A stretch of DNA of 64,000 bases from a virus, in IMG/VR virus record IMGVR_UViG_3300029393_000004; one strand, given 5' to 3'. Shown piece by piece: positions 26,934 to 61,757 of this stretch. The notes under the pieces are model-generated. The model was not told the DNA's origin and made no database searches. It saw only the letters and a program-made list of their open reading frames with translations. Position numbers and translations under genes: made by a program. The first letter of the stretch is position 1; each line of letters starts with the position of its first letter.

Positions 26934-28178
26934 TTATCGTGAGTAACCTGCAACATTGAGTTTTCTGATCGGATATTCAATCTCAATCGCATATCCGAGT
27001 GCATCAGCAGAGTGTTCTATGTTTGCCGATTTATCGACTTCTCTTGAACCTTCGATATAAAGCGTCTGCTCAAGAGCGTTAATCAAGTGAGTACATGAAG
27101 GGTCAACGAATAGTCTGATCTTTCCTTCAGCACTCATAAGCATTCTGTTTACTGAGTTAACACGATCTGCAATCGCTGGATGCTGTCTGCGATACTTGAT
27201 ACGACTAAAACCGTGTTCCCTCAAAATATCAATATCAGTTTCACCACGTGCGTGCTGTCTTGCCCCGCCAGCGGGGTCGGGGTAAAGCGTAATTCTGTCT
27301 TGCCAGCGGTAATACTTCTGCTCAATAGCACACGCCATTTCTTCAGTATTGGAAGACACTTTGACAATCTCTCCCACCGCCCACAATTCGCCATTGGATT
27401 GAGGTTGAAGAATGACCGAAGACATCGGGTCAATATTGAAGTCCATACCAATCCAGATAGGCAATCCTGGATTAAATGGACAACTTTTGATATGTACCGC
27501 TCGTGAGAACGGGTAATACACACGACCAGCCATGTTTTCAAAAGCCGCTTCAAATTCAGCTCGATATGACTTTTCGTCCATATCCCGTTTGGCCGCTTCT
27601 AACTCGGCTTTGGGGATAAATGGGGAGGTAGATGTTGGGAATTGCCATGATTTCCAGTCAGGAGAACCTCCAGGTTGACCCAATTTATACACTTTATACA
27701 ATTGGTTGAAGGCCTTCGGACTGCCGATAAAGAGCGCCCAACCTTTCTTATCTGCTAATGTTGGTCGAAGAACTTGAGTCCAAGTCTCTTCTTTAATATC
27801 TTGGTACTCATCCAGAATCAAGCCGTGTAAGCCAACACCACGAAGTGAGTCAGCTTTATCAGCGCCCTTCAATTCAATTCTTGAGCCATTAACAAGCTCG
27901 ACCGTCATGTTGGTTTCGTTCAGACGGTAAATCCATTCTTTGGGAATAGCGTCCAATAAATCAGCCCACATGATCTGTTTAGCCATTCGATATGTAGGTG
28001 CAACGTACCAAATCTTCTGATTGGGCTTCGTGGCATGGGAAATCATCTCCATGCGTGACAAAAAGCTCTTTCCCCAGCGTCTTCCTGCCGCCACTACTCT
28101 AAATCTATGATTATCAAGATAAACTTCCATCTGTTTGGGATGTAGAGGAAGAGTAATTCTTCGTCTTTCCTTTGCCAT
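26934..28178 (-). CDS. terL: terminase large subunit
   Basis: Walker A VVAAGRRWGKSFLS and Walker B GLILDEYQD. 414 aa, next to the portal gene. Confidence 0.85.
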   Translation of the reverse strand: MAKERRRITLPLHPKQMEVYLDNHRFRVVAAGRRWGKSFLSRMEMISHATKPNQKIWYVAPTYRMAKQIMWADLLDAIPKEWIYRLNETNMTVELVNGSRIELKGADKADSLRGVGLHGLILDEYQDIKEETWTQVLRPTLADKKGWALFIGSPKAFNQLYKVYKLGQPGGSPDWKSWQFPTSTSPFIPKAELEAAKRDMDEKSYRAEFEAAFENMAGRVYYPFSRAVHIKSCPFNPGLPIWIGMDFNIDPMSSVILQPQSNGELWAVGEIVKVSSNTEEMACAIEQKYYRWQDRITLYPDPAGGARQHARGETDIDILREHGFSRIKYRRQHPAIADRVNSVNRMLMSAEGKIRLFVDPSCTHLINALEQTLYIEGSREVDKSANIEHSADALGYAIEIEYPIRKLNVAGYSR

Positions 28179-28405
28179 CAGAAGATACCTTTGAACGGGT
28201 AAGTTATCGTCTCAACAAATTCACCAAAAAGCGAACTTTCCTTCTTAACAGGACGCTGAAGATACAAAGACGCTTCGTATTCTGCTAAGAGAAGTTCTAT
28301 TCTGTCTAGCTTCTCTTGCAAGTATCTCTTTTCTTCTTGCTTAGTCAGCTCCGCTTCTCTTTTGTTCAGCTCTTCTTCTCTGACTTTCAACTCTTCTTCA
28401 GTCAT
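28178..28405 (-). CDS. hypothetical coiled-coil protein
   Basis: 75 aa, between TerS and TerL. Confidence 0.4.
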   Translation of the reverse strand: MTEEELKVREEELNKREAELTKQEEKRYLQEKLDRIELLLAEYEASLYLQRPVKKESSLFGEFVETITYPFKGIF

Positions 28406-29076
28406 TCTTCGCCTCCGATAATGTCGTCTGGAGCCTCGGTATCAATCACGCTGTTTCTTTCTGCAAACTGTTTGTTCAATTCTTCGTCGGGCAGTTCGAG
28501 AGAATCTTCTTCCTGATAATTTCTGATCTGTTCGATCTGATCGGCTGTAAGTTCAGTTAGAACAAGTTCTGGCAGTGCATCGGTGTTCTTATCGTCTTTA
28601 TCCAAGCCGAGTACAGTCCAGCGTTCTTGGCGTGTTACTGCTAAAGTTCTTGCGGCAGATTCAAGGGCTTTTAAGTTACCTGCGATAGAAGCAAACGGTT
28701 TCCCATTCTGTTTGGCGAGGGCAACTTCGGCCCACGTGAGTTTTGCCAAGCCCATCGCCATCTTGTAATGGTCTTCTTTCGTCTCACGAATGCGGGATGC
28801 AACAAGTGTTGCTTCCTGCTCTGCCATTGTCTTAGCTTTATTCATTGCAGACTTTTGTACTTCGTCTGCGTAAGCACCCTTCTTAATTCCGTGATTACTA
28901 ATGAAGTTGGAAACGACAGATTTTGGCACGCCCAACTCTTTAGCAATTTGAGCGGGTGTAAATTCGCCAGTTTCATAAAGTGCCGTTAATCTTCTTTTTT
29001 CTGTAGCGCTCAAAGATCGAGTCGAAGTTCGCTTTTTCGGCTCTTCTTTTGCTTCTAATTCTTTTTCGACTTCCAT
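28402..29076 (-). CDS. terS: terminase small subunit (HTH)
   Basis: HTH FTPAQIAKELGVPKSVVSNF, positioned upstream of TerL. Confidence 0.65.
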   Translation of the reverse strand: MEVEKELEAKEEPKKRTSTRSLSATEKRRLTALYETGEFTPAQIAKELGVPKSVVSNFISNHGIKKGAYADEVQKSAMNKAKTMAEQEATLVASRIRETKEDHYKMAMGLAKLTWAEVALAKQNGKPFASIAGNLKALESAARTLAVTRQERWTVLGLDKDDKNTDALPELVLTELTADQIEQIRNYQEEDSLELPDEELNKQFAERNSVIDTEAPDDIIGGEE

Positions 29077-29117: not shown

Positions 29118-29507
29118 CTAAGAAACGTTATCAATGGTGGTCAGTAATTCGTCTTCTTCTACCGAGTAAATAAACTTGTCAGCTTCTTTTTCGGTAGCTT
29201 TCTTTTCATAAATGAAATCGCAATTCACATAGCAATGTTCGCCATAAGCTGTAACGTCAATTAGTTGACATTGACTTTCTTGGTTGTGAATACGAGCGAT
29301 TTTCGTACCTTCTGGAACCTTAACTTTTTCTAAACAACCCTTGCGAATCAAATATCTGACCGAAAACGCGAGTGCATGAATAGACGGCTTCCAAGGTAAC
29401 CTTTCAGCTAATTCTTTTTTATAAGGCGCTCTTCCGTTCGCTTTCTTGAACGTCTGAATCGTCTCAATAATTATTTTTTGCTTCGGAGAAAGTTCATTGT
29501 GAAACAT
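29118..29507 (-). CDS. putative winged-helix DNA-binding protein
   Basis: 129-aa ORF. Confidence 0.35.
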   Translation of the reverse strand: MFHNELSPKQKIIIETIQTFKKANGRAPYKKELAERLPWKPSIHALAFSVRYLIRKGCLEKVKVPEGTKIARIHNQESQCQLIDVTAYGEHCYVNCDFIYEKKATEKEADKFIYSVEEDELLTTIDNVS

Positions 29508-30430
29508 TAGAGCTTCTCCGAAAGTTCTTTTAATGTCTCTAATCTCAGCGGTTCATCGAGTCTGTGACAATCAAACGCCGAGATTGGGATTCTGCTCGGC
29601 AAGTCTGTTCTGCCCTTGTCAGGGTTGAAATAGACGCCGTACAGGGGAAAAGCAAAAACTAACTGCTGAGTGTTCTTGATCAGTTTCGCAATAGGCAGAG
29701 AATCAACTCTTGTGCGTCCCCTGAGTCGATTATCTCCGCTGTTTTCCATTGAGGAGTGCTTCCAGTAGAAGGTACGCATCTCTTCAATGCATTTATTTCG
29801 TTCAAATTCGCTCATTTCATTGAGTTCTTGATAAACTGCAACAAAATCAGCAGGAATACAACTGAACCAACGACGGAACCACTTCAAACCAGCCTGATAA
29901 TTAACTGTTCTTTTCGGTGGTGCAAACTGAATACCAGCCTTCTGAGCAAAAGGGTTAAACCGAGACATTGAGCTTTGAAACTCAACAAAGTCGGCTCCAG
30001 TCATACGCATCATAATGTTCTGCATTCTGTATGCGATACCAACTCCACGGTACATAGTATCTAAAACCAGTCGGGAGTTAGTACAAGAATGGGCGTTAAT
30101 CCAAATAGCGCGATGTCGATTGATAATGCGTGTATCTCTACCCCCGATATTGGGCTTCAGATGCTTAAACAATTCATTTCTGCCCGCAAGCGTCATACGG
30201 GGAACGGTCATAACTCCGACGCCAATGAGCTGATCTTCGAGCATACAGCGATAGAAACGAGGCCAAATGCCCAAAACTTCAGCTTTGTAATGCAAAGCAT
30301 GAAGTTCGTTCCAATCTTCAACTGTACCCTTCTCAACATAAATCTTGTCCAGCAGAGACAGTCTTGGCTTCTTGGGCACATCCCAACGCTCAATCAGAAT
30401 ATCAGGGGTGTCGGAGATAACCTGCTTCAT
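29507..30430 (-). CDS. GNAT-like acetyltransferase-fold protein
   Basis: LVLDTMYRGVGIAYRMQ resembles GNAT motif A (V.....RG.GIA). 307 aa. Confidence 0.4.
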   Translation of the reverse strand: MKQVISDTPDILIERWDVPKKPRLSLLDKIYVEKGTVEDWNELHALHYKAEVLGIWPRFYRCMLEDQLIGVGVMTVPRMTLAGRNELFKHLKPNIGGRDTRIINRHRAIWINAHSCTNSRLVLDTMYRGVGIAYRMQNIMMRMTGADFVEFQSSMSRFNPFAQKAGIQFAPPKRTVNYQAGLKWFRRWFSCIPADFVAVYQELNEMSEFERNKCIEEMRTFYWKHSSMENSGDNRLRGRTRVDSLPIAKLIKNTQQLVFAFPLYGVYFNPDKGRTDLPSRIPISAFDCHRLDEPLRLETLKELSEKL

Positions 30431-30633
30431 TCTTTAATTGCTCGATAAATCAAGAAGAAAGGTGTGAACGCCCAACCTAAGACGAACAATAAAATACGGA
30501 TGATCAGCGTGACAATCCCGACAAATGTCCAGAAAACAAGCATCAGAGGAAAGACAATCCAACAAAGCCAAAGAATGAGAATGTTGGAGTCTCTAACAAG
30601 CTGGCAAACTTCGGCGAAACTTTTATCACGCAT
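30427..30633 (-). CDS. small membrane protein (2 TM)
   Basis: 68 aa, strongly hydrophobic. Confidence 0.45.
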   Translation of the reverse strand: MRDKSFAEVCQLVRDSNILILWLCWIVFPLMLVFWTFVGIVTLIIRILLFVLGWAFTPFFLIYRAIKE

Positions 30634-30910
30634 TCGTCAAGCCCCATTTCTTGAACAATTCTTCGATTGAAGAGAATGTCTGATGACCGATCACACGATC
30701 AACTTCTTTGCCATCTTCAACAATCAGAATCGTTGGAACGCCCCGAACGTTATGAGCAATAAATTCTTCTCTTGCGGAATCCATGTCATAAACAGTCAAA
30801 GGAACATCAAAGCGCTCGCAAAAATCCGTCAGCAACGGCTTTAACATTCTGCAAGGCGAGCAAGTAACGCTCGAAAAAATATAGACTTCTTTATTTGCCA
30901 TCGAATTCAC
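30626..30910 (-). CDS. thioredoxin/glutaredoxin-like protein (CSPC active site)
   Basis: CxxC motif (VTCSPCRM) and a VPTILIV beta strand. 94 aa. Confidence 0.7.
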   Translation of the reverse strand: MNSMANKEVYIFSSVTCSPCRMLKPLLTDFCERFDVPLTVYDMDSAREEFIAHNVRGVPTILIVEDGKEVDRVIGHQTFSSIEELFKKWGLTNA

Positions 30911-31577
30911 TCGTAATATCTCTGTATCCGTCTTCAGTGCGCACTTTTACGTCAATACGCTCTCTGTAACGCTTCAATATGTAGGTGTCAGGCGCCAAGT
31001 CATTCACCAAGTCGGTGTGGGTTGTGGCAACGATGAGGGTTGCGCCACATTTGCGTGCAATCTTTTGCAGATTGAAGGCAATGTTTTTCGCTGTGACTCG
31101 ATCAAGCACCGCCAAGAATTCATCCGCAAACCAAACTTGCGCGCCTGACTCGATCAACCTTGCCAATTTGAATCGGTATCGCTGACCGTCCGAAAGCTCC
31201 TTGGGCTTTCTGAGATACAGGTTTGCATCTGATAAACCCACGAGAGAGAAAATTTGAAGAGCTTCGCTGACAGTCGGACAAAGTTGATCAATGATTGGTT
31301 CGTCTGTAGAGGTTGCTTCATCAATATCCGCAACCTTCAGACCTTCTTTTTTCATCAGACTCTTCAATTCATTCAGAATCGTTGACTTGCCCGAGCCTGA
31401 TTGACCTGTAATGTAAACAACGTCTCCATCGTTGATCTGCAACTTCAAATTGTCGAAAACAACGAAGTCTTTTTCGTCCAGCCCGAGACCGAACGCTTCT
31501 GCAATCTCAAGAACACGCTTGGTTCTTGAGACTTCAGTGGAGAAGTGCTTGTTAATTAAATAGGTTCTGTTTGTCAT
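30891..31577 (-). CDS. ABC-type ATPase, stand-alone nucleotide-binding domain
   Basis: Walker A GQSGSGKST; ABC signature LSDGQRYR; Walker B VWFADEFLAVLD; H-loop ATTH. The likely start at the internal M overlaps the SPFH stop (TAATG). Confidence 0.7.
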   Translation of the reverse strand: MTNRTYLINKHFSTEVSRTKRVLEIAEAFGLGLDEKDFVVFDNLKLQINDGDVVYITGQSGSGKSTILNELKSLMKKEGLKVADIDEATSTDEPIIDQLCPTVSEALQIFSLVGLSDANLYLRKPKELSDGQRYRFKLARLIESGAQVWFADEFLAVLDRVTAKNIAFNLQKIARKCGATLIVATTHTDLVNDLAPDTYILKRYRERIDVKVRTEDGYRDITSEFDGK

Positions 31578-32419
31578 TACTTTGTTTGTACAAAGGGCAT
31601 CGGAGCGTCCGCACTCATAAACTGGGGCATAACACCATTCCATTTGTTAATCGCTTCAAGCTGTACAACCTCGGGATTGTCTCTAAGCGCTTTAGCCTTA
31701 AGAGCAATAGCGTCTGCTTCTGCTTGAGCTTCAATCTTGATTGACTCTGCCTTACCACGGGCGGCTTCAATGAGCTTCTGAGCTTCTGCTTTAGACTGAG
31801 CGATTTCGTTTTCTCTCAAAAGAGCACGCTGAGTTGCTTCAATCTTTGCGTTGATGGAGTCTCTGACCTGTTGCGGATACTGCATATCCGAAGTCCAAGA
31901 AACTTTAACGATTTCAATTCCGATGGGGTCTAATTTGGCTTTAAGGTCTTTAGTGACCTCATCCAATAAGTCTGTTTTGCCCGTGGTTGTGAGCTTATTC
32001 ACGTCCATCTTAGAAGCGTGCTTAATCAGAGAATCGCTGATGTTCTGTCTTACGTTTGTAGCGGTAATTTCATCAACACCCTTACGGTACGTCTGAAAAA
32101 CCGTCGCTGTCATCTCAGGCTTAACACGATATTCAATGCCGATCTTGGCTTGAACAGTCATCGCATCCGAAGTCTGAAAGATGAACGGAGAATTGTAGGA
32201 ATGAAGCTGATTGAATGTCGGGAACAGGTAAATCTGTTCGTTCCAAGTCAAGAAGTAACGACCGACATTAAGAGCTTCCTGCTGAACGCCCTTTGAGTCG
32301 CCATAGAGATTGACTTTAATGCCAACATTACCTGCCGGAACGGTTTCAACAGAGCAACCGTTTAAATTCACACAAGCCAGCAGAAAACCGAGAAGTACAG
32401 CTACTTTAAATTTTTTCAT
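31577..32419 (-). CDS. SPFH/band-7 (prohibitin/HflC-like) lipoprotein
   Basis: Lipoprotein signal with lipobox LNGC. SPFH-like body with a coiled-coil tail (EAQAEADAIALKAKAL). Confidence 0.65.
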   Translation of the reverse strand: MKKFKVAVLLGFLLACVNLNGCSVETVPAGNVGIKVNLYGDSKGVQQEALNVGRYFLTWNEQIYLFPTFNQLHSYNSPFIFQTSDAMTVQAKIGIEYRVKPEMTATVFQTYRKGVDEITATNVRQNISDSLIKHASKMDVNKLTTTGKTDLLDEVTKDLKAKLDPIGIEIVKVSWTSDMQYPQQVRDSINAKIEATQRALLRENEIAQSKAEAQKLIEAARGKAESIKIEAQAEADAIALKAKALRDNPEVVQLEAINKWNGVMPQFMSADAPMPFVQTK

Positions 32420-32670
32420 CGTTTAAGGAAAAGGTAAGTGAAATACAGACAAAGCGCCACAAAAGAAACAGGAGCGGCAAATGCAAGCCAAACAAAGACA
32501 ATGTTTGAACTATTAAGCATCGTCGGAATAGCCGTTGTTACTAAGTAAGCCCCCGACAATACAAATAGAATGAAGAAGAAAATTTTCAAAAACTCTTTAA
32601 ATCTGTTCATTGCACTGTTCCGTGTTGCAGACCAAGACCCGTAACATGAAGATTGTTCAGAATGAAGCAA
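32416..32670 (-). CDS. small membrane protein, NfeD-like candidate partner of SPFH
   Basis: 2-TM protein directly upstream of, and overlapping, the SPFH gene. The true start is possibly the internal M (MNRFKEF...). Confidence 0.4.
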   Translation of the reverse strand: MLHSEQSSCYGSWSATRNSAMNRFKEFLKIFFFILFVLSGAYLVTTAIPTMLNSSNIVFVWLAFAAPVSFVALCLYFTYLFLKR

Positions 32671-33038
32671 ACGAGATCAGGGTTGTCCTGAAATACCTGA
32701 CAGAGACCATTGATACCCGCAACAACATAGTTTTCGTTTGTCCACTGAGATGTAGCATCCTGACAGCCGAAACCTGCATTGAAATGAATGACGTGAAGAA
32801 CCTCATGCAACAGGGTATTAGCTTCGTCAATCTCGTTTAGACCGTCGTCGATGTAGATGACGCTCTTCTTGTAGTCAACCATCCCGAAGACTTGACCTTC
32901 CATATTCTTAAAGTAGTGATCGGGGTCGCCAACCTTTTTGATTTCATAGTATTGATAGCCGATTTTCACAACTTTCGGCATTTCAACAACTGCGATAGGG
33001 GCAACGGCTTCGATGGGCTGAGTTTCTTTTTTCTTCAT
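32607..33038 (-). CDS. putative Zn-metallopeptidase (HExxH)
   Basis: LLHEVLHVIH motif. 143 aa. Confidence 0.45.
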   Translation of the reverse strand: MKKKETQPIEAVAPIAVVEMPKVVKIGYQYYEIKKVGDPDHYFKNMEGQVFGMVDYKKSVIYIDDGLNEIDEANTLLHEVLHVIHFNAGFGCQDATSQWTNENYVVAGINGLCQVFQDNPDLVCFILNNLHVTGLGLQHGTVQ

Positions 33039-33041
33039 ATC

Positions 33042-33701
33042 TTATTTAATGTAGTTTTGAGCAAATTCAACAAAGGCTTCTGCACCAGCTTTAGACGTTT
33101 CGCCCTCGATTTTTGCCATGAAACGAGCAACAGTTCTTTCCTGCGCTCCCTTAATCGTTTTAAAGCCAAGAGCGTCAGCAATTCTCACTTCCGCTTCATC
33201 GGCTTCAATAATCTTTTCTTCGGTTTCCGTCGCTTTCTTTTCAATATCTGCGTAAAGGTCTGCTGAAACGGCTTCAGGCTTGAACTCGCTCAAGTCAGCT
33301 TCTAAGAAAGCCAATTCTTTCTTATCGAAAATTCCGCTGAGGTCTAAATCAATGCTTGCGATTTCGTTTTGCAATCCGACAGTATCGAAGTCGGAAATGG
33401 CAACTCGGTTGTCTGCGATACGAGCCGCTTTTATTTGTTCTTCGGTCAAGTCTCTGCGAACTAAAACTGGAACTTTCTTCAGTCCCAAAAAGCGGGATGC
33501 TTCAGTTCTGCCATGACCTTTGATAATTACGCCGTCTTTATCAACGACAATAGGCTGATCGAATCCGAACTGTTTGATACTTTGAGCGATCTTTTCAACC
33601 TGCTCTTCGTCATGTATCTTGACATTGTTCTCGTATGGCTTGACGGCTTCTATCGGCCACCATTCAATTTTCAATTCGCCATTCGTACTTGTAGAACTCA
33701 T
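33042..33701 (-). CDS. ParB-like nuclease domain protein
   Basis: ParB N-terminal pattern (IVVDKDGVIIKGHGRTEASRFLGLKKVPVLV). Confidence 0.7.
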   Translation of the reverse strand: MSSTSTNGELKIEWWPIEAVKPYENNVKIHDEEQVEKIAQSIKQFGFDQPIVVDKDGVIIKGHGRTEASRFLGLKKVPVLVRRDLTEEQIKAARIADNRVAISDFDTVGLQNEIASIDLDLSGIFDKKELAFLEADLSEFKPEAVSADLYADIEKKATETEEKIIEADEAEVRIADALGFKTIKGAQERTVARFMAKIEGETSKAGAEAFVEFAQNYIK

Positions 33702-33873
33702 TTTCCTTTTCTCGTTCTTCTATTTCTTCTGCGAAAAGTTTTCTTAATTCTTCTCGATCTTCTGACTCGTCGGGTTGTTCTAAGTCTTCAATTTCGAGTT
33801 CTCTTGGGATTCCAGGCGGCTTTATTCTGTCGCTCTTATTCTTCTTTTTTGACATTTGTGCAAAGGTAAACAA
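33664..33873 (-). CDS. small acidic ORF between the ParB genes (uncertain)
   Basis: 69-aa ORF overlapping both neighbours. May be spurious. Confidence 0.2.
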   Translation of the reverse strand: MFTFAQMSKKKNKSDRIKPPGIPRELEIEDLEQPDESEDREELRKLFAEEIEEREKENEFYKYEWRIEN

Positions 33874-34492
33874 GCGCGTCGCCAGCGTTCGTCAGAGAAT
33901 CGCTTTCTGTGTAGCCCTGCTCTTTCATAATCTTTTCGATTAGCTTTTGCACTTTTTCAGAATCTTCGATTGCAACTTTAAAACGCATCACGACGTGTGT
34001 TTGAGGCGGTCGTTCGGTTACGGGAGCGCTTTCTTCTAATTCTTCTTCATCAACTTCCAATTCATCTAAATTGATAGATGTGTTTGAAAACAGCGTCTCA
34101 AGGCTTTGATCAGAGTACGGCATATAAGACGAAAGATCAGATATGTCACCCAAGCCCGAAAGCAATTCGGATAGCTTGAAAGCGTCATCTTCGCCATAAC
34201 GTCCGTTATCAATGAGAGAGATTTTCTTGGCTTCTTCATCTGAAATCTCGCCAAGGTTAATAACTGCGACCTTATCTAATCCCAGCTCTTTGGCGGCTCT
34301 CCATCTATGTTCTCCGCCAATAATTTCAAAACCTTCATCTTGCTCACGCACAAGAATCGGTTTGAACTGACCGAATCGTCTCAGGCTCTCCTTTATTTTT
34401 TCTTCGTTGTCTGGAGAAACGACGTTTGTGTTGTAGGGATTAGGGGTCAGTTGATTGATTGGAACTTGTTCTATTTTTAATTCGTCCCGCAT
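33836..34492 (-). CDS. ParB-like nuclease domain protein (second copy)
   Basis: ILVREQDEGFEIIGGEHRWRAAKELGLDKVAVINL. Confidence 0.7.
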   Translation of the reverse strand: MRDELKIEQVPINQLTPNPYNTNVVSPDNEEKIKESLRRFGQFKPILVREQDEGFEIIGGEHRWRAAKELGLDKVAVINLGEISDEEAKKISLIDNGRYGEDDAFKLSELLSGLGDISDLSSYMPYSDQSLETLFSNTSINLDELEVDEEELEESAPVTERPPQTHVVMRFKVAIEDSEKVQKLIEKIMKEQGYTESDSLTNAGDALVYLCTNVKKEE

Positions 34493-34549
34493 TAAAACTT
34501 TTATAATAAGTAGTTAACTACTTCATTATTGTAGAGCAATGGATTAAAA

Positions 34550-36091
34550 ATGTCAATGGAAAACAATACGATAAAGATTTTAGCGAATGCTGTAACGTGC
34601 AAAGTAGATACTGAGGACAGAAACGTAAAGCTCGAAGTCAATCGTTGTCTGACTTATTTTGTGGACGGCTATGAACAATCTACCGCTTTCAAAATGCACA
34701 CGTGGGACGGCACGGCTTCCTTCTTCAACTTTGCAAAATGCACGTTCCCCGCAGGTTTTATGTATTACGTCGGAGCCTGTCTGAAAAGAAAAGGTTATGA
34801 CGTACAGTTCTATAAAAAGCCGTTGCCGAAGCCTTTGGGCAAACTCAGACCGAAAATTGGCAATTATGAGTACGACCCAAGGTATGAATATCAGTACACG
34901 GTTACAGAGAAACTTTTAAAACACGGACAGATCATTTGTCGAGCGGCAACGGGCGCGGGTAAAAGTCTTATTGCTTTAATCGCTTTTGCAACCATCAATC
35001 GACCTACTCTGTTTCTTACGACACGCTCCATTCTCATGTACCAAATGAAGGAAAATGTCGAAAACAATCTCGGCATTGATGTTGCGGTTATCGGAGACGG
35101 CAATTTAGGTTTTGAAAACTCAGACGGCTCTAAATCACTCAAAAAATTCACTGTCGCTACCGTTCAAACGATTCATTCATACATCAAAGAGCCGAATCCC
35201 ACTGATTCCGCCTATGAATTCACTGCACAAAAGAAACGTCAAGAGTTTATGAAGTCCATTCTTGAGAAGTTTGAGTTTGTCATCTTAGAAGAAGCTCATG
35301 AGTCTTCAGCTTCAGGTTGGTTTGAACTACTTAAATACTGCAAAAACGCTTATTACAGACTTGCTTTGACGGGCACACCGTTTATGAAGGAGTCTGAAGA
35401 GATGAATATGCGTTTAATGGCTTCTTCTGGCCCTGTCGCCATCACCGTTACTGAAAAGCAACTCATTGACTGCGGGATTCTTGCGACGCCTTACTTCAAG
35501 TTTGTTCATCTGACTAAGAAACCTACAACCATGTCGATGAAGACTTCTTGGCAACCCGCCTATCGCATCGGCATTGTTGAAAACGAAGAACGTAATCAAG
35601 CCATTATCTATGAAGCAAAACGTGCTGTTGCTCACGGTCTTACCGTGATGATTCTTTTCAAGCAAATTGCCCACGGTAAAATGCTCAAGGAAATGCTTGA
35701 TGACGCTCGTATTCCCAATGAGCTTATTGTCGGCGCTGATGATCAAGCGGAAAGAAAACGGGCAATTAACAAACTCAAAGACGGCAAAATTAAAGTCTTA
35801 CTCGGCTCAACTATTCTTGATGTCGGAGTAGATGTCCCTGCTGTCGGCATGGTGATAATTGCTAGTGCTGGCAAAGCTGAAGTCGCTCTCAGACAACGTA
35901 TCGGCAGAGGTCTGCGTGCCAAGAAAAATCAAGCTAATATCTGTTTTGTGGTTGACTTTGATGACCCGTTTAATAAGTACCTGAAGAATCATGCTCAACA
36001 GAGAAAAGCGATTATTCAGCATACAGACGGCTTCAAAGAACACATTGTTGAAGATTTTGACTACAACTTGCTCAAGGAAAAATTATGCTAA
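34550..36091 (+). CDS. SF2 DNA helicase (DEAD/DEAH-like)
   Basis: Walker A AATGAGKS; motif II ILEEAHES; motif VI QRIGRGLR. 513 aa. Confidence 0.8.
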   Translation: MSMENNTIKILANAVTCKVDTEDRNVKLEVNRCLTYFVDGYEQSTAFKMHTWDGTASFFNFAKCTFPAGFMYYVGACLKRKGYDVQFYKKPLPKPLGKLRPKIGNYEYDPRYEYQYTVTEKLLKHGQIICRAATGAGKSLIALIAFATINRPTLFLTTRSILMYQMKENVENNLGIDVAVIGDGNLGFENSDGSKSLKKFTVATVQTIHSYIKEPNPTDSAYEFTAQKKRQEFMKSILEKFEFVILEEAHESSASGWFELLKYCKNAYYRLALTGTPFMKESEEMNMRLMASSGPVAITVTEKQLIDCGILATPYFKFVHLTKKPTTMSMKTSWQPAYRIGIVENEERNQAIIYEAKRAVAHGLTVMILFKQIAHGKMLKEMLDDARIPNELIVGADDQAERKRAINKLKDGKIKVLLGSTILDVGVDVPAVGMVIIASAGKAEVALRQRIGRGLRAKKNQANICFVVDFDDPFNKYLKNHAQQRKAIIQHTDGFKEHIVEDFDYNLLKEKLC

Positions 36092-36438
36092 GAAGAAATC
36101 TCATACTGTCGTCTTCTCTTCTTATTTTGCCTGCTGTTACTTTTGCAAAACCGCGCACTTCAAAAGAAGAGCAAGCGCTTTTTGACATAAGTATTGCCTC
36201 CATTACTCTTTCAGGCGAATTTTTCACCAGAGAACAATTAAACGAGAAGATCAAAGAGTTAAAAAATGCCCTACCTCATGTCAAAGATAAAGAATTAAAA
36301 ACCGAAACAAGAAAGCTAATTGCAAAAGCTCAGACCATACTTCTCTCGAGTTATGTGTCTAATACTCAAATGAGAGAGATGAACGAACAAGCAAATTTAG
36401 TAGATGCATTGAGTCAAGAAGTTCGCAACAGAAAATAA
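36085..36438 (+). CDS. secreted hypothetical protein
   Basis: Signal peptide MLRRNLILSSSLLILPAVTFA. Confidence 0.5.
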   Translation: MLRRNLILSSSLLILPAVTFAKPRTSKEEQALFDISIASITLSGEFFTREQLNEKIKELKNALPHVKDKELKTETRKLIAKAQTILLSSYVSNTQMREMNEQANLVDALSQEVRNRK

Positions 36439-36558
36439 ACGCTTTCATAGTTGCAAATCCCACGATTGATTGTTTGTGGGATTTATTTTTGCTTGGTAAT
36501 GATTAATTGGCAAACTTCTTCTATTCTCTTAGGAATGATCAACCCAAGAGGAAGAAGA

Positions 36559-37086
36559 ATGACAAAAGTTTTTCGTTTCAATTGGAATATAAAAAAGTTC
36601 CCATTCGAAGTTTGCAAAAATGCATTCGAAGAGGCCCAGCAACTAGACAACATAATGTTTTGGCGTCATAAAAAAGAAGTTCATCCCAAGAAGAATTCTC
36701 CTTGTTTCTTTTGGCTCGGCACTTCTGGCACCAACAATAAAAGATTCAGAAAATTACGAGGAGTTATAGGTGTCGGACAAATTGCTGATGATGAAGAATA
36801 CAAATTCAAATACGAAGACGAGACGACTCCCAAATATTTAACACAATTGAAAGACATAAAGTCCCCAAAGCACTTCGAGAACATGATGTTTTCGAAAGTT
36901 AAAGTTATCTTTCTTGCTTTTGACAAAGCTATTGTATCCAAGGAAGAAGCAACTCGGCTGTTTGACAATGACATCTACAAAGTATCTGGCAACGGATGCT
37001 CAAACTACATTAACGACGCTTTTCAAGAAATAGCAAAAAGACTGATCAGAGAAACGGCACTAAGAATTAAAAAATCTCGGACATAG
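36559..37086 (+). CDS. hypothetical protein (PUA/EVE-like?)
   Basis: Start at MTKVFRF with an AGAGGAAGA RBS. The longer track ORF 36451.. lacks an RBS. Confidence 0.45.
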   Translation: MTKVFRFNWNIKKFPFEVCKNAFEEAQQLDNIMFWRHKKEVHPKKNSPCFFWLGTSGTNNKRFRKLRGVIGVGQIADDEEYKFKYEDETTPKYLTQLKDIKSPKHFENMMFSKVKVIFLAFDKAIVSKEEATRLFDNDIYKVSGNGCSNYINDAFQEIAKRLIRETALRIKKSRT

Positions 37087-37339
37087 TCAACATTTCAGTG
37101 CGATTCAAGGGATAAGGATAGGCCTCTGACCTCCCCGCCCCTATGGGATAAGGACGAGTTTGGGAAAGCTCAGGAAAATTGAGGGATGGATAGGGGGTTA
37201 TTCACAACCGGTTTTAGACTTCGATTGTAAATATTATCTATTTATTTATAAATCGGCTGCTGAAATAAATATTTTTATTTTATTTACAATAAATGAATTA
37301 AAATAATAAATAAAACAATTTAAATAAATTGCATAATTA

Positions 37340-37380
37340 AAAATAAACCGCTTGATTAACAAGCGGTTTATTTGTTTATT
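37340..37380. terminator. bidirectional terminator hairpin AAACCGCTTGATTAACAAGCGGTTT
   Basis: Perfect stem with A and T tracts on either side. Separates the plus-strand helicase island from the minus-strand small genes. Confidence 0.55.
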
Positions 37381-37384
37381 TATT

Positions 37385-37551
37385 TAGCAGGTCTTTTTTA
37401 GAATTTCATGCTCTAATAATCTGCATAACCATTTGTGAAACAATGCGTTAGGGTATGTAGTCGTATAAATAACCCAAATTAAACACCAAATAAAACCAAA
37501 AACTAAAGCACACAAATTAAGCAAAAGATTAAATATAAATTGTTCTGACAT
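37385..37551 (-). CDS. small hydrophobic protein (~55 aa)
   Basis: Manual translation gives MSEQFIFNLLLNLCALVFGFIWCLIWVIY... It is preceded by the same 29-bp element as gene 37590..38036 and followed by a hairpin terminator at about 37340-37380. Confidence 0.35.
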
Positions 37552-37589
37552 TTTCAGTACCTTTAAATGTAGTGATTTATTTAAAGAAT

Positions 37590-38036
37590 TTAACCGATAA
37601 ATCTTAATGCTTCAATAATAAACTTATTATATAGTTCTAAATGTCTAGGTATTGAAAGATCAAAAATCAATTGATCATAGTATTCATTAGAAACAATATC
37701 TATACAATTATCAGCATATACAGCAGTATTAAATATTTCCCAAATATTTACACCGTCACGGGTAATTTTTTCATTATCGTTCAATACCGCAAACTTGACT
37801 ACAGCAATTTTTGAATTTTCAAAGGGTAAATATTTAGATTCACCGTAAGCAAGCAGACCAGATAAACAATCAATGTTATAAACGACATTACAGCGTTGAA
37901 AAGAAATAGTATCGTCTATACAACCAAAATCACCTTCTAATAAAAATTCATGGTCTTTCGTGAATTTAGCAATTTCGGAGAATTGAGCTTTTAGTTCTTC
38001 TGATAATTTAATAGTTAATTCTTTATTGATTAACAT
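37590..38036 (-). CDS. hypothetical protein
   Basis: 148-aa ORF flanked by a 29-bp direct repeat. Confidence 0.5.
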   Translation of the reverse strand: MLINKELTIKLSEELKAQFSEIAKFTKDHEFLLEGDFGCIDDTISFQRCNVVYNIDCLSGLLAYGESKYLPFENSKIAVVKFAVLNDNEKITRDGVNIWEIFNTAVYADNCIDIVSNEYYDQLIFDLSIPRHLELYNKFIIEALRFIG

Positions 38037-38119: not shown

Positions 38120-38986
38120 TTAAGCGTTAGCAGAGATTAGTTTAAATAACTGCATAGCTTGCACGCTGTTAATTGTAATCGGTGTGTTTCTCTTGAATTT
38201 CTTAAACGTGATTAAACCGAGGTACATGCAAATCTTTTTGCATTGGGTAGTTTGGGCGCTAGCAGTGTCGAGAGTGTTATTAGTTGCTCCCTCTTTTGCG
38301 TATTGTGCTCGTGTCTTTTCGTCTATCTTAGCTTTTTTGTTAAGTGCACACATCATCAATTTAGCGCTAGCTAAATCGTGATGACCGTTGACCATAGCTA
38401 ATGTAAATTTGACAACGTAGTTAATTTTGCATTTTCTACCGAGTGCGAGAGCGTGTACAGTCTCAGCAAATTTATTCATTTCTTTTTGACTGACATAATA
38501 TTGATCACTTTCGTCAAGAATCGCTACATTTTTCGCGTACTGCATAGCGTAAGCATGACCATCAGAAAAACCGAGCAAACCAGCAAGAGTGACTAAATCT
38601 TGATAGACAATTGCGGGGGTCATGCTCATTGTGTCTCTTAAGATGTGCGTGTCTCTGTACCACCCTGTTTGAAGGTTATGCTCTTCTTCGTATGTTGCGG
38701 GGATGGGCATTCTGCGGGTTTTATAATAATTAACCCGTCTTTCACCGTAAGATTTAAACCAAAGATTTTTGAACTCTGTTGCTTTCGGGTCATTAGAACC
38801 CTTGACATTGAGAACGGGAGCAACTTTAGCGGGTGCGTTCTTTTTTGTCTGCTTAGTCTGTTTCGAAGCGACTTTCTTAGATTCTTCGTTGAAAACCTTG
38901 TTAGAACGAGAACGATTCTTTTGAGTCTGTTTGTCGAATTTAGCGATTTCGCTAGCAGTTGCGAATGTAAAAACGTTCTTTTTCAT
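38120..38986 (-). CDS. hypothetical basic protein (candidate DNA-binding or replication-associated)
   Basis: 288 aa with a Lys-rich N-terminus. Adjacent to a repeat-rich 780-bp noncoding region. Confidence 0.45.
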   Translation of the reverse strand: MKKNVFTFATASEIAKFDKQTQKNRSRSNKVFNEESKKVASKQTKQTKKNAPAKVAPVLNVKGSNDPKATEFKNLWFKSYGERRVNYYKTRRMPIPATYEEEHNLQTGWYRDTHILRDTMSMTPAIVYQDLVTLAGLLGFSDGHAYAMQYAKNVAILDESDQYYVSQKEMNKFAETVHALALGRKCKINYVVKFTLAMVNGHHDLASAKLMMCALNKKAKIDEKTRAQYAKEGATNNTLDTASAQTTQCKKICMYLGLITFKKFKRNTPITINSVQAMQLFKLISANA

Positions 38987-49627: not shown

Positions 49628-49703
49628 TCTCCGATAGCTCAGTTGGTAGAGCGACGGACTGTTAATCCGTGGGTCGTTGGTTCAAGTCCAACTCGGAGAG
49701 CCA
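49628..49703 (+). tRNA. tRNA-Asn (GTT)
   Basis: Cloverleaf found by eye: acceptor TCTCCGA/TCGGAGA, D arm GCTCAGTTGGTAGAGC, anticodon arm ACGGA-CTGTTAA-TCCGT, T arm GTTGGTTCAAGTCCAAC, CCA encoded. Confidence 0.8.
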
Positions 49704-49988
49704 CCAAATTCAGTTTGCTTGTTTGATCTACAAGCAACGAATGCCGTGCTCCAGGGTTTCTGTAGCGGTTCTATTCTTGGTGAACCTTAAACGAAGAAGG
49801 TTATCGCAACTATCCAAAAGCGTTTGCGGAGTTTAAGCCTTTTTACTCTGATTAAGGCTTTGGTGAGGTTAGCCAATTCAACACGGTCTAGCGCTGGGTC
49901 GTGGCGGAAAAATAACAAGGGGTCTGTTAAAGATCGACAGACTCCGCCTCAAAGTCATTTGGCAAACAGATGATTTTGAAGTTTTAAT

Positions 49989-50080
49989 CGCAGTGGTGGC
50001 ATGAGTTGGTCGATGGCGGCGGACTGTAAATCCGTTTCTCTGAGCGAGACGCGTTGGTTCGAATCCAACCCCTGCGACCA
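49989..50080 (+). tRNA. type II (long variable arm) tRNA, anticodon GTA (Tyr-like), with non-canonical pairs
   Basis: Anticodon arm GCGGA-CTGTAAA-TCCGT; variable arm TCTC-TGAGC-GAGA; T arm GTTGGTTCGAATCCAAC; CCA encoded. The acceptor stem has one T/C mismatch and the D stem one G/G mismatch. Total length 92 nt. Confidence 0.5.
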
Positions 50081-50088
50081 AGGTTGTT

Positions 50089-50163
50089 GCGGGTATGGTT
50101 CAACTGGTAGAACAACGGCCTTCCAAGCCGTTGACGAGAGTTCGAGTCTCTCTACCCGCTCCA
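50089..50163 (+). tRNA. tRNA-Gly (TCC)
   Basis: Acceptor GCGGGTA/TACCCGC; anticodon arm ACGGC-CTTCCAA-GCCGT; T arm GAGTTCGAGTCTC; CCA encoded. Confidence 0.8.
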
Positions 50164-50350
50164 CTAGGAGTTGACCTGCACTATCCGAGACATATAGGTC
50201 TCGCAAGGCTTGTGTCTCGGAGTCCGTGTAGGTTTTTGAGGTGGTGTGCAGGTGTGTAGCGAACATCTGTGTAAGGTCTGTCGGTTGGCCACTGACAGTC
50301 CTGTATGACCGGCAACAGGCGCCATTTTGTTGAAGGGAATACGAACGGTC

Positions 50351-50422
50351 GGAGGTAGCTCAGTCGGTAGAGCGGCCTTTAATAAGGGTGTGTCGTGGGT
50401 TCGAGCCCCACCCTCCGACAAT
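50351..50422 (+). tRNA. tRNA-like gene with an aberrant anticodon arm (possible pseudo-tRNA)
   Basis: Acceptor TCGGAGG/CCTCCGA, D arm GCTCAGTCGGTAGAGC and T arm GTGGGTTCGAGCCCCAC are all canonical. The anticodon region GGCCTTTAATAAGGGTGT cannot form a 5-bp stem with a 7-nt loop. Confidence 0.45.
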
Positions 50423-54123: not shown

Positions 54124-54918
54124 ATGACTAAGTTTGATGTAGTCTCCGACCTGCATTTTGATCACTTCGTAGGAAGTGGTGAAGCGGGTACAGAATTCTT
54201 GGAAAGCGTATTTCTCAAGCCAACTGCCCCCAATCTTTTAGTAGCGGGAGATATTGGCAACTGGTACAGCGAACACGCCTTAATCTATACAGACTACTTC
54301 TTCAACTTAGTCAGACATAAATACCAAAACGTCATTTGTGTCTTAGGCAACCACGATTACTACTTTTCATCGTTTGATGAGAGTCCAACACCCGTTGGAC
54401 TCTATCGCCAACGTTACGCCGAATATAATAACGTTCGTTTTCTAAATTTGAATGACGCTCGGAGTACCATCAAAGTAGATGACGTCACTATTATTGGCGG
54501 AACACTCTGGTCTGAGCTTGACCCTGTGTATGAGCTTGAGATTATTCGACGTCTTAATGATTTCAGGTGCATTCACGGCTTAACAGCTAAAGACTACCGA
54601 GACAGATTCACAAAAGAATTGCTTGAGCTTGATAGACTGCTTGAAATACACAAAGATGAAAAATGTGTGGTCTTAACGCACCACGCACCGACCTTCTATA
54701 CAACGCCAATGTACAAAGACAGCTCGCTTCAAAGTGCTTTCTGCACTGACCTTACAAGAATGTTTCCTTCTCGGTCAAACATTAAAGCGTGGGTATTCGG
54801 TCATACCCATGTCAAAGCCGAGCTTGAGATTGGCGGAGTAAAGCTGGTTGAAAATTCGTTTGGATATTACGGTCAAGAGAGCTTAGATTACAAGCCGAAG
54901 TTATTGACAATAGAGTAA
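54124..54918 (+). CDS. calcineurin-like metallophosphoesterase
   Basis: Motifs SDLHFD, GDIGN, GNHDYY and GHTH. Confidence 0.75.
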   Translation: MTKFDVVSDLHFDHFVGSGEAGTEFLESVFLKPTAPNLLVAGDIGNWYSEHALIYTDYFFNLVRHKYQNVICVLGNHDYYFSSFDESPTPVGLYRQRYAEYNNVRFLNLNDARSTIKVDDVTIIGGTLWSELDPVYELEIIRRLNDFRCIHGLTAKDYRDRFTKELLELDRLLEIHKDEKCVVLTHHAPTFYTTPMYKDSSLQSAFCTDLTRMFPSRSNIKAWVFGHTHVKAELEIGGVKLVENSFGYYGQESLDYKPKLLTIE

Positions 54919-60669: not shown

Positions 60670-61581
60670 CTAAACTGCAATCGGTGCTTTAATCGCGGGA
60701 TATGATTCATAACTCGTGATCTCAAAATCATCGAACTTGTATTCCCAAGGGAATTCGTGATGATTTCTTATATGTAATTGTGCGCTCGGGGGTAATGGCG
60801 TGCGTGAAAGCTGAAGTTTTACCTGTTCAATGTGATTGTCATAGAGATGAACATCTCCGCCCGTCCAAACGAATTCATCAGGGACATAACCCAAACAATC
60901 AGCAAAAATGTGTGTTAGCAAGGAATAACTTGCGATGTTGAACGGCACACCTAAGAAGAAGTCACAACTTCTCTGATAAAGCTGACAAGACAGATACCTC
61001 TTGCCGTTTTCTTCTCTTACGAAGAACTGAAAGAGACAGTGACAAGGCGGTAAAGCCATTTGGTCGATTACTAATGGGTTCCATGCGCAAACAATATGTC
61101 TTCTTGAGAATGGAAAATCCTTGAGAGACCAAAGAACATTTTCAATTTGATCTACGCTATCTGTTTCTTCCTCGTCCTCGATTGTTCCATCGGCCACAAA
61201 ATAGTGGTCTTCTTCGTCATCACAGTCTTCAGCATCACAAAACACTTCAACTCTTGCGAATGTTCCGACAGCAGAAAATGCTCTCCATTGTTTACCGTAG
61301 ATCGGGCCAAGATTTCCGTTTTGATTTGCCCATTCGTCCCAAATCGTCACGCCGTTTTCTTGCAGGTACTTGATGTTTGTATCCCCGCTCAAGAACCAAA
61401 TCAGCTCGTGAATGATGGACTTCAAATGAAGTTTCTTTGTTGTCAGAAGCGGGAAGGATTCTTTGAGATCAAATCTCATTTGGGCACCGAAAATTGCTCG
61501 TGTGCCAACGCCCGTTCTGTCTTCTCGATGATTTCCTTTATCGAGAATTTGTTGCATTAAATCAAGATATTGTTTCATGGT
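60670..61581 (-). CDS. thyA: thymidylate synthase ThyA, with a ~35-aa acidic insertion
   Basis: Start at [26 protein letters not shown] (canonical ThyA N-terminus). The catalytic region [11 protein letters not shown] is present. An inserted block [34 protein letters not shown] sits before the conserved [11 protein letters not shown]. Confidence 0.85.
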
Positions 61582-61757
61582 TTTTGAAAATAAATAGTGA
61601 CAACCAATGCCGAGATGACGGCTACTAAGAAAATGGAAAGAGCTAAGTAATGGTTTTTGTCCCAAGCGACAATTAACCCGACGACAAAAGCCATGAGACC
61701 ACCAGCGCCCGCCATTAGTCCGACAAGGTGATAGAGAAAGTCAAAGAAGGTTTTCAT
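61575..61757 (-). CDS. small membrane protein
   Basis: Hydrophobic ~60 aa, starting at the internal [11 protein letters not shown]. Confidence 0.35.

Follow-up and report, generated by a model that had tools for sequence, protein, structure and literature searches.

A putative split ABC-GNAT protein and a mobile SPFH cassette in the pre-terminase operon of an SSU5/Nickie-type phage

A composite gene block upstream of the terminase

The 64,000-nucleotide stretch of viral DNA analysed here (IMG/VR record IMGVR_UViG_3300029393_000004; hereafter the window) carries, at positions 29118-32670, an uninterrupted run of minus-strand open reading frames (ORFs) upstream of the packaging genes. A first-pass annotation had read seven of these as a single membrane-acting module, in which a stand-alone ABC ATPase is joined to an SPFH lipoprotein and an NfeD-like protein. 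Our results suggest that the stretch is composite: a core pair, formed by the ABC ATPase and a GNAT-fold protein, would be accompanied by a mobile membrane cassette of two genes (the SPFH lipoprotein and TM64, a small protein with two transmembrane (TM) segments) and by other accessory genes. We think it likely that all of them belong to one operon built as a conserved scaffold with two accessory slots, and we hold the biochemical activities proposed below with less confidence than this architecture. Every component falls in an existing phage protein family, and what is new is their combination only.

The ABC ATPase and its GNAT partner

The ABC-type ATPase (30891-31577, minus strand, 228 amino acids (aa)) matches PF00005 (53 bits, E=5e-14) and phrog_293 (E=5.5e-50), and has the elements of an ABC nucleotide-binding domain: the Walker A GQSGSGKS, the signature LSDGQ, the Walker B VWFADE and an H-loop. 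Walker A, signature and Walker B are kept in most relatives, and the signature in all but one. The ATPase had been described as lacking a permease, and we indeed found no permease gene in the block of the window or in those of Nickie, Cyrano or RHEph10. The best NCBIfam matches of the domain are to the CcmA, DevA, LolD, FtsE and MacB types, all with scores far below the family cutoffs. In all the loci examined its neighbour is the gene of a GNAT-fold acyltransferase-like protein of 307 aa with a C-terminal helical domain (29507-30430, minus strand; phrog_886, E=5.5e-128); in Cyrano the two overlap by 4 nt. This protein has no Pfam match of any kind, including to the ABC/P-loop and GNAT models. 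Its earlier description as GNAT-like is borne out by the fold and by motif A (Q/R-x-x-G-x-G/A), the acyl-CoA pyrophosphate-binding loop, in which R128, G131 and A133 show no variation across 39 sequences.

The association of the two proteins is best seen in distant homologues. A profile search with the GNAT protein, covering 1.84 billion representatives, found 613 relatives, many of which are 440-560 aa long and have the GNAT-like part at about residues 200-390. The ten fused homologues that we scanned all have an N-terminal ABC_tran domain, and their domain order matches the order of the phage genes. None of the ten has a membrane or permease domain in Pfam, TM segments not having been predicted. 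One has an intein in the ABC domain, one a C-terminal TFIIB repeat, and one is a PolB-ABC-GNAT protein of 1260 aa; a Yasminevirus protein of 1260 aa is also found among the matches in BFVD, which are otherwise generic GNATs only. Those fused proteins whose gene context was inspected lie on contigs too short to be of use, and one of them adjoins an integrase. The distant fused homologue P0430 matches Acetyltransf_1 in Pfam, and in records of JGI, and in some of GenBank, the two phage genes each bear the name 'ABC-type ATPase with predicted acetyltransferase domain'.

An ABC nucleotide-binding domain joined to a GNAT-like domain is the arrangement of the COG2401 type, and the two phage proteins appear to be a split form of this COG2401/MK0520 architecture. 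The fusion in the same domain order is therefore Rosetta-stone evidence that they act jointly. It also suggests that the ABC ATPase partners the GNAT protein and not the SPFH protein, to which it had been tied in the first-pass annotation. The label 'ABC transporter ATP-binding subunit' given to the GNAT half (phrog_886) by PHROG and many GenBank records is an annotation artefact, because this half lacks any ABC or P-loop match in Pfam and the label stems from the name of the fused COG2401 family.

Conservation of the core in a supergroup of phages and phage-plasmids

A search for near-identical DNA in phage and plasmid collections gave no match to the region. The TerL of the window is 56-60% identical to those of the Pseudomonas Nickievirus, of SSU5-like phage-plasmids (SSU5, Cyrano and Klebsiella elements) and of Rhizobium RHEph10-like phages, and its GNAT protein is 41-46% identical to the counterparts in the Nickievirus, SSU5, Acinetobacter AB and RHEph10 groups. 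We thus class the phage, from its sequence, as an SSU5/Nickie-type siphovirus of the Nickie/SSU5/RHEph10 supergroup. An evolutionary link among Nickievirus, the SSU5 supergroup, the Acinetobacter AB group and RHEph10-like elements has been described (PMC7969092). The host is probably a gut member of the Sutterellaceae: this assignment has as its sole basis an ABC protein named from Parasutterella muris that is 85% identical to the window copy, and a scan of genome contigs with the GNAT protein gave no confirmed locus that would corroborate it.

The annotated records of Nickie, Cyrano and RHEph10 share the same layout, in which a divergent helicase is followed by a ParB, an optional small gene, a ParB-like gene, the ABC gene and zero to two small genes, then by the phrog_886 protein, a small DNA-binding protein, TerS, TerL and the portal. 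The ORFs of 31 IMG/VR loci that encode a relative of the 307-aa protein were likewise mapped on the window proteins with blastp. Every locus that is sufficiently long has the helicase on the opposite strand followed by ParB1-ParB2-ABC-GNAT-TerS-TerL-portal, down to 52% identity in the GNAT protein. The order ParB-ParB-[HExxH peptidase]-ABC-[thioredoxin]-GNAT-[winged helix]-TerS-TerL, with optional genes in brackets, is shared by Nickievirus, SSU5-like phage-plasmids, RHEph10 and about 20 divergent IMG/VR contigs. These results suggest that the invariant scaffold is ParB1-ParB2-ABC-GNAT(-winged helix)-TerS-TerL, and that a ParB-ABC-GNAT block directly upstream of the terminase is the canonical arrangement in the supergroup. 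The first-pass annotation had found nothing comparable in the late region of lambda-like phages. This frame does not apply here, since the phage is not lambda-like and the block is the usual one among its relatives.

The GNAT-like gene is present in 31 phage records and in 967 plasmid records; among the plasmid hosts are Klebsiella (341), Escherichia (207), Acinetobacter (147), Enterobacter (90), Yersinia (62) and Salmonella (49). Of the plasmid records listed, almost all measure about 100-117 kb. The carriers comprise elements of Y. pestis, as well as lytic Nickie-like and Rhizobium phages. Almost everywhere the gene is annotated as hypothetical, or else mislabelled 'ABC transporter', and the paper on auxiliary metabolic genes of Nickievirus leaves the ABC and ParB genes unmentioned. 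Our literature search gave nothing relevant on the ParB and ABC genes of SSU5 either.

The SPFH lipoprotein and TM64 as a mobile cassette

The SPFH/Band-7 lipoprotein (31577-32419, minus strand, 280 aa) matches PF01145 (86.4 bits, cutoff 23.6; E=3e-24) and phrog_200 (E=1.4e-81), and its translation reads as a signal peptide with the lipobox L-N-G-C, in agreement with the first-pass annotation. The AlphaFold2 (AF2) model has strands at residues 71-99, helices, and a single C-terminal helix of about 65 residues (183-247), and thus combines the alpha/beta domain and the long coiled-coil helix of cage-forming members of the family. The top Foldseek matches of the model are HflK/C, prohibitin, stomatin and erlin (E from 2.5e-10 to 1e-8). 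An identity as HflK or HflC was rejected, given 37.4 bits for TIGR01933 (cutoff 159), 23 bits for TIGR01932 (cutoff 134), and an anchor that is a lipobox instead of an N-terminal TM helix. In the literature, phage SPFH genes have been listed as morons (DLP5; PMC5834331), and an SPFH protein of a P. multocida prophage has been found in outer-membrane vesicles with an effect on virulence (PMC9872710). Our literature search found nothing relevant on phage SPFH proteins and superinfection exclusion.

Upstream of the SPFH gene lies TM64 (32416-32610, minus strand, 64 aa), which has two hydrophobic segments separated by the loop IPTMLNSS. An ORF of 63-75 aa with two TM segments is found directly upstream of SPFH in every context examined, and often overlaps its start. 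These contexts are PVP-SE1 (gp115), phage 19-1-2, the loci L044/L047 and L046, a Salmonella prophage, and Acinetobacter plasmids, in which the small ORF was left uncalled. The pair occupies the early regions of Vequintavirinae, and in the Salmonella prophage it sits in the replication module, between an Enc34-type single-stranded DNA-binding protein and DNA polymerase A. The small ORFs share basic termini and a loop of the form (A/V)-P-(T/S/W)-(L/M)-x-S-x-(K/R)-(D/S)-T. The positive-inside rule predicts that the loop of TM64 faces the periplasm, on the same side as the lipoprotein, and TM64 would then be the obligate inner-membrane partner of the SPFH protein. This partner had been called NfeD-like, an identity that we reject: TM64 has no match to PF01957 at E<=0.1 and, with 64 aa and two TM segments only, it is too short for an OB-fold. 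What stands of the 'classic stomatin operon' described earlier is therefore an SPFH protein with a conserved small membrane partner, which is not NfeD.

Within the supergroup, the only relatives with SPFH and TM64 in the block are those whose GNAT proteins show 99-100% identity (within L004-L013), and all relatives below about 95% identity lack the two genes there. In L011, whose GNAT protein is 84% identical, ABC comes immediately after the peptidase gene, and the DNA homology to the window stops at 32666 and is regained precisely at the ABC start codon at 31577. L013, a 99% relative recovered from the same metagenome, has lost about 600 nt within SPFH (window 32268-31666) and keeps a remnant of 97 aa. 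This absence and this internal deletion suggest that the SPFH gene is recent and dispensable in the lineage. They are also at odds with a single seven-gene module, whose members should keep together in related phages: ABC, GNAT, the winged-helix gene and usually the thioredoxin stay syntenic, and SPFH and the small TM genes do not.

Outside the lineage the family is common. Homologues of SPFH were found in 400 phage records, with an identity of at least 60% in 35 of these; the records span Vequintavirinae, Pseudomonas, Burkholderia, Erwinia, Caulobacter and Stx2a phages. Hundreds more, with 61-68% identity, are in chromosomes of Salmonella, Serratia, Yersinia and Pantoea and on an Acinetobacter plasmid. 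The sources name them 'SPFH/Band 7/PHB domain protein', or else 'serine protease', which is incorrect. The 'putative membrane lipoprotein' encoded upstream of the helicase in Cyrano was considered as a further homologue and rejected, as it gave no blastp match at E<=1e-4.

Accessory slots on both sides of the ABC gene

The gap between ParB2 and ABC (slot 1) ranges from -58 to 844 nt across relatives, and the one between ABC and GNAT (slot 2) from -3 nt (Cyrano) to 2846 nt (L023). In the window, slot 1 holds an HExxH peptidase, TM64 and SPFH, and slot 2 a thioredoxin and a 68-aa hydrophobic protein, TM68. Slot 2 of L023 has a Tad2-like (anti-Thoeris, PF11195) gene at L023:5267-5689, and gp080 of RHEph10 (L003), in the same slot, is annotated as DUF2829, which we take to be the older name of the Tad2-like Pfam family. 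On an Acinetobacter plasmid, another Tad2-like gene is found downstream of the cassette (L050:7811-8389). The slots of relatives also contain two genes of the N4 gp49/Sf6 gp66 family, a crAss001_48-like gene and a GIY-YIG/NUMOD3 homing endonuclease. The two gaps flanking the ABC gene thus appear to be hotspots of accessory genes, and these positions, together with the one downstream of SPFH, may be hotspots of anti-defence genes. The resemblance to known anti-phage defence systems was explored with PADLOC and rejected, the ABC ATPase giving only generic P-loop matches. Further PADLOC matches were those of the ParB proteins to type II methyltransferase models, through the ParB domain, and a weak one of the peptidase; the SPFH protein, the TM proteins, the thioredoxin and the GNAT protein gave none.

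The HExxH metallopeptidase-like protein (32607-33038, minus strand, 143 aa) matches phrog_1233 (E=7e-15) and, weakly, Peptidase_M78 and DUF6782. It is present in about half of the loci, and the HExxH motif is kept in 13 out of 13 distinct homologues. The thioredoxin (30626-30910, minus strand, 94 aa) had been called from its CxxC motif, and both this motif (CSPC) and the fold were recovered (PF00085, 47 bits against a cutoff of 23.5, E=2.7e-12). It is found in most loci, with CxPC in 17 out of 17 distinct homologues. The phage has functions of nucleotide metabolism that the thioredoxin could also serve; the window encodes a thymidylate synthase (60670-61665; phrog_160, E=8e-114) and a metallophosphoesterase (54124-54918).

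TM68 (30427-30633, minus strand) is accessory. Its hydrophobicity agrees with the tiny protein of about two TM segments annotated earlier; it has no family match in Pfam or PHROG, and a similar protein, of 71 aa, was found in L011 only. An unrelated protein of 92-114 aa with three TM segments follows the thioredoxin in several divergent relatives (L014:5060-5344, L018:6478-6822 and L024:3874-4152). It has no match in Pfam and shares the motif FLLGLQS(R/K)NV..GRY.AAM.TS.GIS..QFIFVK.

Operon layout and other features of the window

The minus-strand run extends on both sides of 29118-32670, with the HExxH gene and two ParB genes upstream and TerS-like, TerL and portal genes downstream. A promoter-like site at 34528-34556 on the minus strand (TTGACA-17-TACAAT, identified only as a match to 11 out of 12 consensus positions) lies in the divergent gap between the plus-strand helicase and the minus-strand ParB1, and is likely the start of a transcription unit running from ParB to the terminase. 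ParB1 (33836-34492, minus strand, 218 aa; PF02195 ParB N-terminal domain, E=3.6e-17; phrog_723, E=1.4e-66) belongs to the conserved core and is syntenic in all loci that reach its position. ParB2 (33042-33701, minus strand, 219 aa; PF02195, E=3.4e-9; phrog_930, E=5.7e-78) is likewise a syntenic member of the core. The last gene of the seven (29118-29507, minus strand, 129 aa) encodes a putative winged-helix DNA-binding protein. The earlier call of a winged helix receives weak support only, from LexA_DNA_bind (E=0.0026, below cutoff) and phrog_900 (E=1.4e-7). The gene is syntenic between GNAT and TerS in most loci, and in Cyrano the gene at this position, CYRAN_123, is annotated as a DNA-binding protein.

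All seven ORFs were recovered at the annotated coordinates, and two of the starts were revised. TM64, listed as an ORF of 84 aa (32416-32670) with an upstream TTG extension, most likely starts at the ATG at 32610, because relatives lack the extension and the junction with the peptidase gene is then ATGA. The ABC gene, listed as 30891-31643, most likely starts at the ATG at 31577, because P0121, a 99% identical protein, has 228 aa; the junction between SPFH and ABC is TAATG. With these starts all junctions overlap by 1-20 nt, and the overlap of 64 nt reported at first disappears. Such tight packing is ordinary for a phage operon and is no evidence of a common function.

Downstream of the seven genes are the TerS-like DNA-binding protein (28402-29076, minus strand, 224 aa; phrog_867, E=6.4e-45), which is directly upstream of TerL in all relatives, and TerL itself (26934-28178, minus strand, 414 aa; Terminase_6N and Terminase_6C). 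A 75-aa ORF, charged and coiled-coil-like, lies between them and overlaps both (28178-28405); it is kept only in close relatives (68-99% identity; L004-L013 and L034). TerL and the helicase are intein-free in the window. In close relatives TerL has an intein with a LAGLIDADG homing endonuclease (L007:8517-11081, where the protein has 854 aa against 414 aa in the window; also L008, L009, L011, L013 and L034). A similar intein, matching Hom_end_hint and Hom_end, is in the divergent helicase of L005 (281-2881; 866 aa against 513 aa). Just past the helicase, GC content dips to 0.33 at 36001-38000 of the window, from about 0.42 in the flanks. The nearby ORFs at 36451-37086 and 38120-38986 have no PHROG match, and the region is a candidate foreign island or origin region. 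Four plus-strand tRNA genes are found at 49628-50420: Asn-GTT, Tyr-GTA, Gly-TCC and Ile-AAT, the last with an anticodon that is unusual for bacteria.

Proposed mechanism and alternatives

We propose a single operon, transcribed from the promoter-like site ahead of ParB1 and reaching into the terminase genes. The ABC and GNAT proteins would be the two halves of one enzyme, a split ATP-gated acyltransferase, in which ATP-driven dimerisation of the ABC protein gates an acyl-CoA-dependent transferase or positions it on the target. This target might be DNA or a DNA-bound protein, as suggested by the neighbouring ParB, small DNA-binding protein and terminase genes and by the PolB and TFIIB fusions. 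The SPFH cassette, recently acquired, would be independent of this core. Its lipoprotein, once exported and lipid-anchored, would oligomerise through the long C-terminal helix into a ring or cage like those of HflK/C or prohibitin at the periplasmic face, and this ring would dock on the periplasmic loop of the two-TM inner-membrane partner. The role of the cassette could be a dispensable modification of the envelope, such as exclusion, envelope protection or the modulation of a membrane protease.

Several observations weigh against parts of this proposal. Our literature search found no publication on the COG2401/MK0520 family and no experiments on these genes. A small membrane protein lies between thioredoxin and GNAT in many relatives, and through these recurrent proteins the core may have a connection to the membrane, of which they are the only hint. 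On the side of the cassette, the first 57 or so residues of the SPFH model have low confidence. The lipoprotein, which might be sorted to the inner or to the outer membrane, has S at position +2 in the window, as against E in its enterobacterial counterparts and D in those of Acinetobacter. The family of two-TM partners is just 21-29% identical across contexts, so that its homology rests on position, topology and loop motif. Finally, the TAATG coupling of SPFH to ABC has the cassette co-expressed with the core, and a functional link could have been recruited in this clade.

One may ask whether the seven genes nonetheless act as one membrane system, in which a permease-less ABC protein energises SPFH/NfeD, together with the thioredoxin and the small TM proteins, and acts on FtsH, exclusion or lysis timing. 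In favour of this, the genes lie side by side on one strand with translational coupling, three of the seven encode membrane or envelope proteins, and HflK/C-type SPFH proteins, to which the model has structural matches, cage FtsH. Yet below about 95% identity the block has neither SPFH nor TM64, L013 keeps ABC, GNAT and thioredoxin in spite of its partial SPFH deletion, and the cassette is found in hundreds of phages with neither ABC nor GNAT nearby. Since, in addition, distant homologues have the ABC protein fused to GNAT, there is no NfeD domain and the PADLOC matches are generic or weak, we regard this explanation as highly improbable. It is also very unlikely that the ABC protein drives a cryptic mini-transporter or mechanotransducer akin to FtsEX, LolCDE or MacB, with the small TM proteins as its membrane parts and with GNAT and thioredoxin processing the cargo. 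The types of its best NCBIfam matches fit this idea, as does the small membrane protein that recurs between thioredoxin and GNAT (TM68, the 71-aa protein of L011, the three-TM protein of L014, L018 and L024). However, the NCBIfam scores are far below cutoffs, the small TM proteins fall into two or more unrelated kinds, and the ten fused ABC-GNAT proteins have no membrane or permease domain in Pfam (TM segments not predicted). The idea fails because the blocks of Nickie and of Cyrano/SSU5-type elements have no membrane-protein gene.

A third explanation we consider unlikely, if less so than the other two. The whole block from ParB to the winged-helix gene would be a packaging-linked system of DNA modification or anti-restriction: ParB would load on phage DNA, and ABC-GNAT would acylate bases, or a protein associated with DNA or capsid, before encapsidation, in a manner comparable to the GNAT-fold Mom of phage Mu. 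The thioredoxin and the HExxH peptidase would then be frequent helpers of this Mom-like system. The gene neighbourhood and the PolB fusion that point to a DNA-associated target also speak for it, but position is weak evidence and the PolB fusion may be an artefact of the gene model. Furthermore, the match to Mom has 10% identity, no better than those to generic GNATs, and our literature search found no data on modified DNA for SSU5, Nickie or RHEph10. Should it be true, this block, which is core to the SSU5/pMT1/pHCM2/AB supergroup of phage-plasmids, would be an unrecognised ATP-dependent acyl-transfer system.

With a split ABC-GNAT core and an independent cassette as the preferred reading, there is no new seven-gene membrane system, and two widespread uncharacterised units are left: split ABC-GNAT and the two-TM and SPFH cassette. 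The uncharacterised ABC-GNAT/ParB block is the better lead, because it is core to a very widespread lineage of phage-plasmids; its target, once known, would shed light on a core function of this lineage, which is common in the clinic. The cassette is a tractable model for SPFH cages in bacterial envelopes.

Comparison with known systems

The core pair resembles the COG2401/MK0520 proteins (phrog_293 plus phrog_886 in phages) in having an ABC nucleotide-binding domain followed by a GNAT-fold domain in identical order. It differs from the fused proteins in that the halves are separate genes, in the window and in all the phages and phage-plasmids examined, often with accessory genes between them. 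The pre-terminase block shares with those of Nickievirus, SSU5, AB and RHEph10-like elements the divergent helicase and the series ParB-ParB-ABC-GNAT-small DNA-binding protein-TerS-TerL-portal, to which the window phage adds, in the slots, the SPFH cassette, the thioredoxin and TM68. The SPFH protein is 60-68% identical over its full length to the phrog_200 lipoproteins of phages and prophages (e.g., PVP-SE1 gp117 and those of Salmonella, Serratia and Yersinia prophages), which have the same lipobox and the same two-TM gene of about 63-75 aa directly upstream. Elsewhere these lipoproteins are encoded in early or replication modules and on plasmids, whereas the cassette of the window is placed within a pre-packaging operon. 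Finally, the cassette has in common with the bacterial stomatin/NfeD and HflK/C-FtsH systems the SPFH fold, the long oligomerisation helix and an adjoining gene for a small membrane protein, but it is anchored by a lipobox instead of a TM helix, and its partner has neither the OB-fold of NfeD nor a ClpP-like domain.

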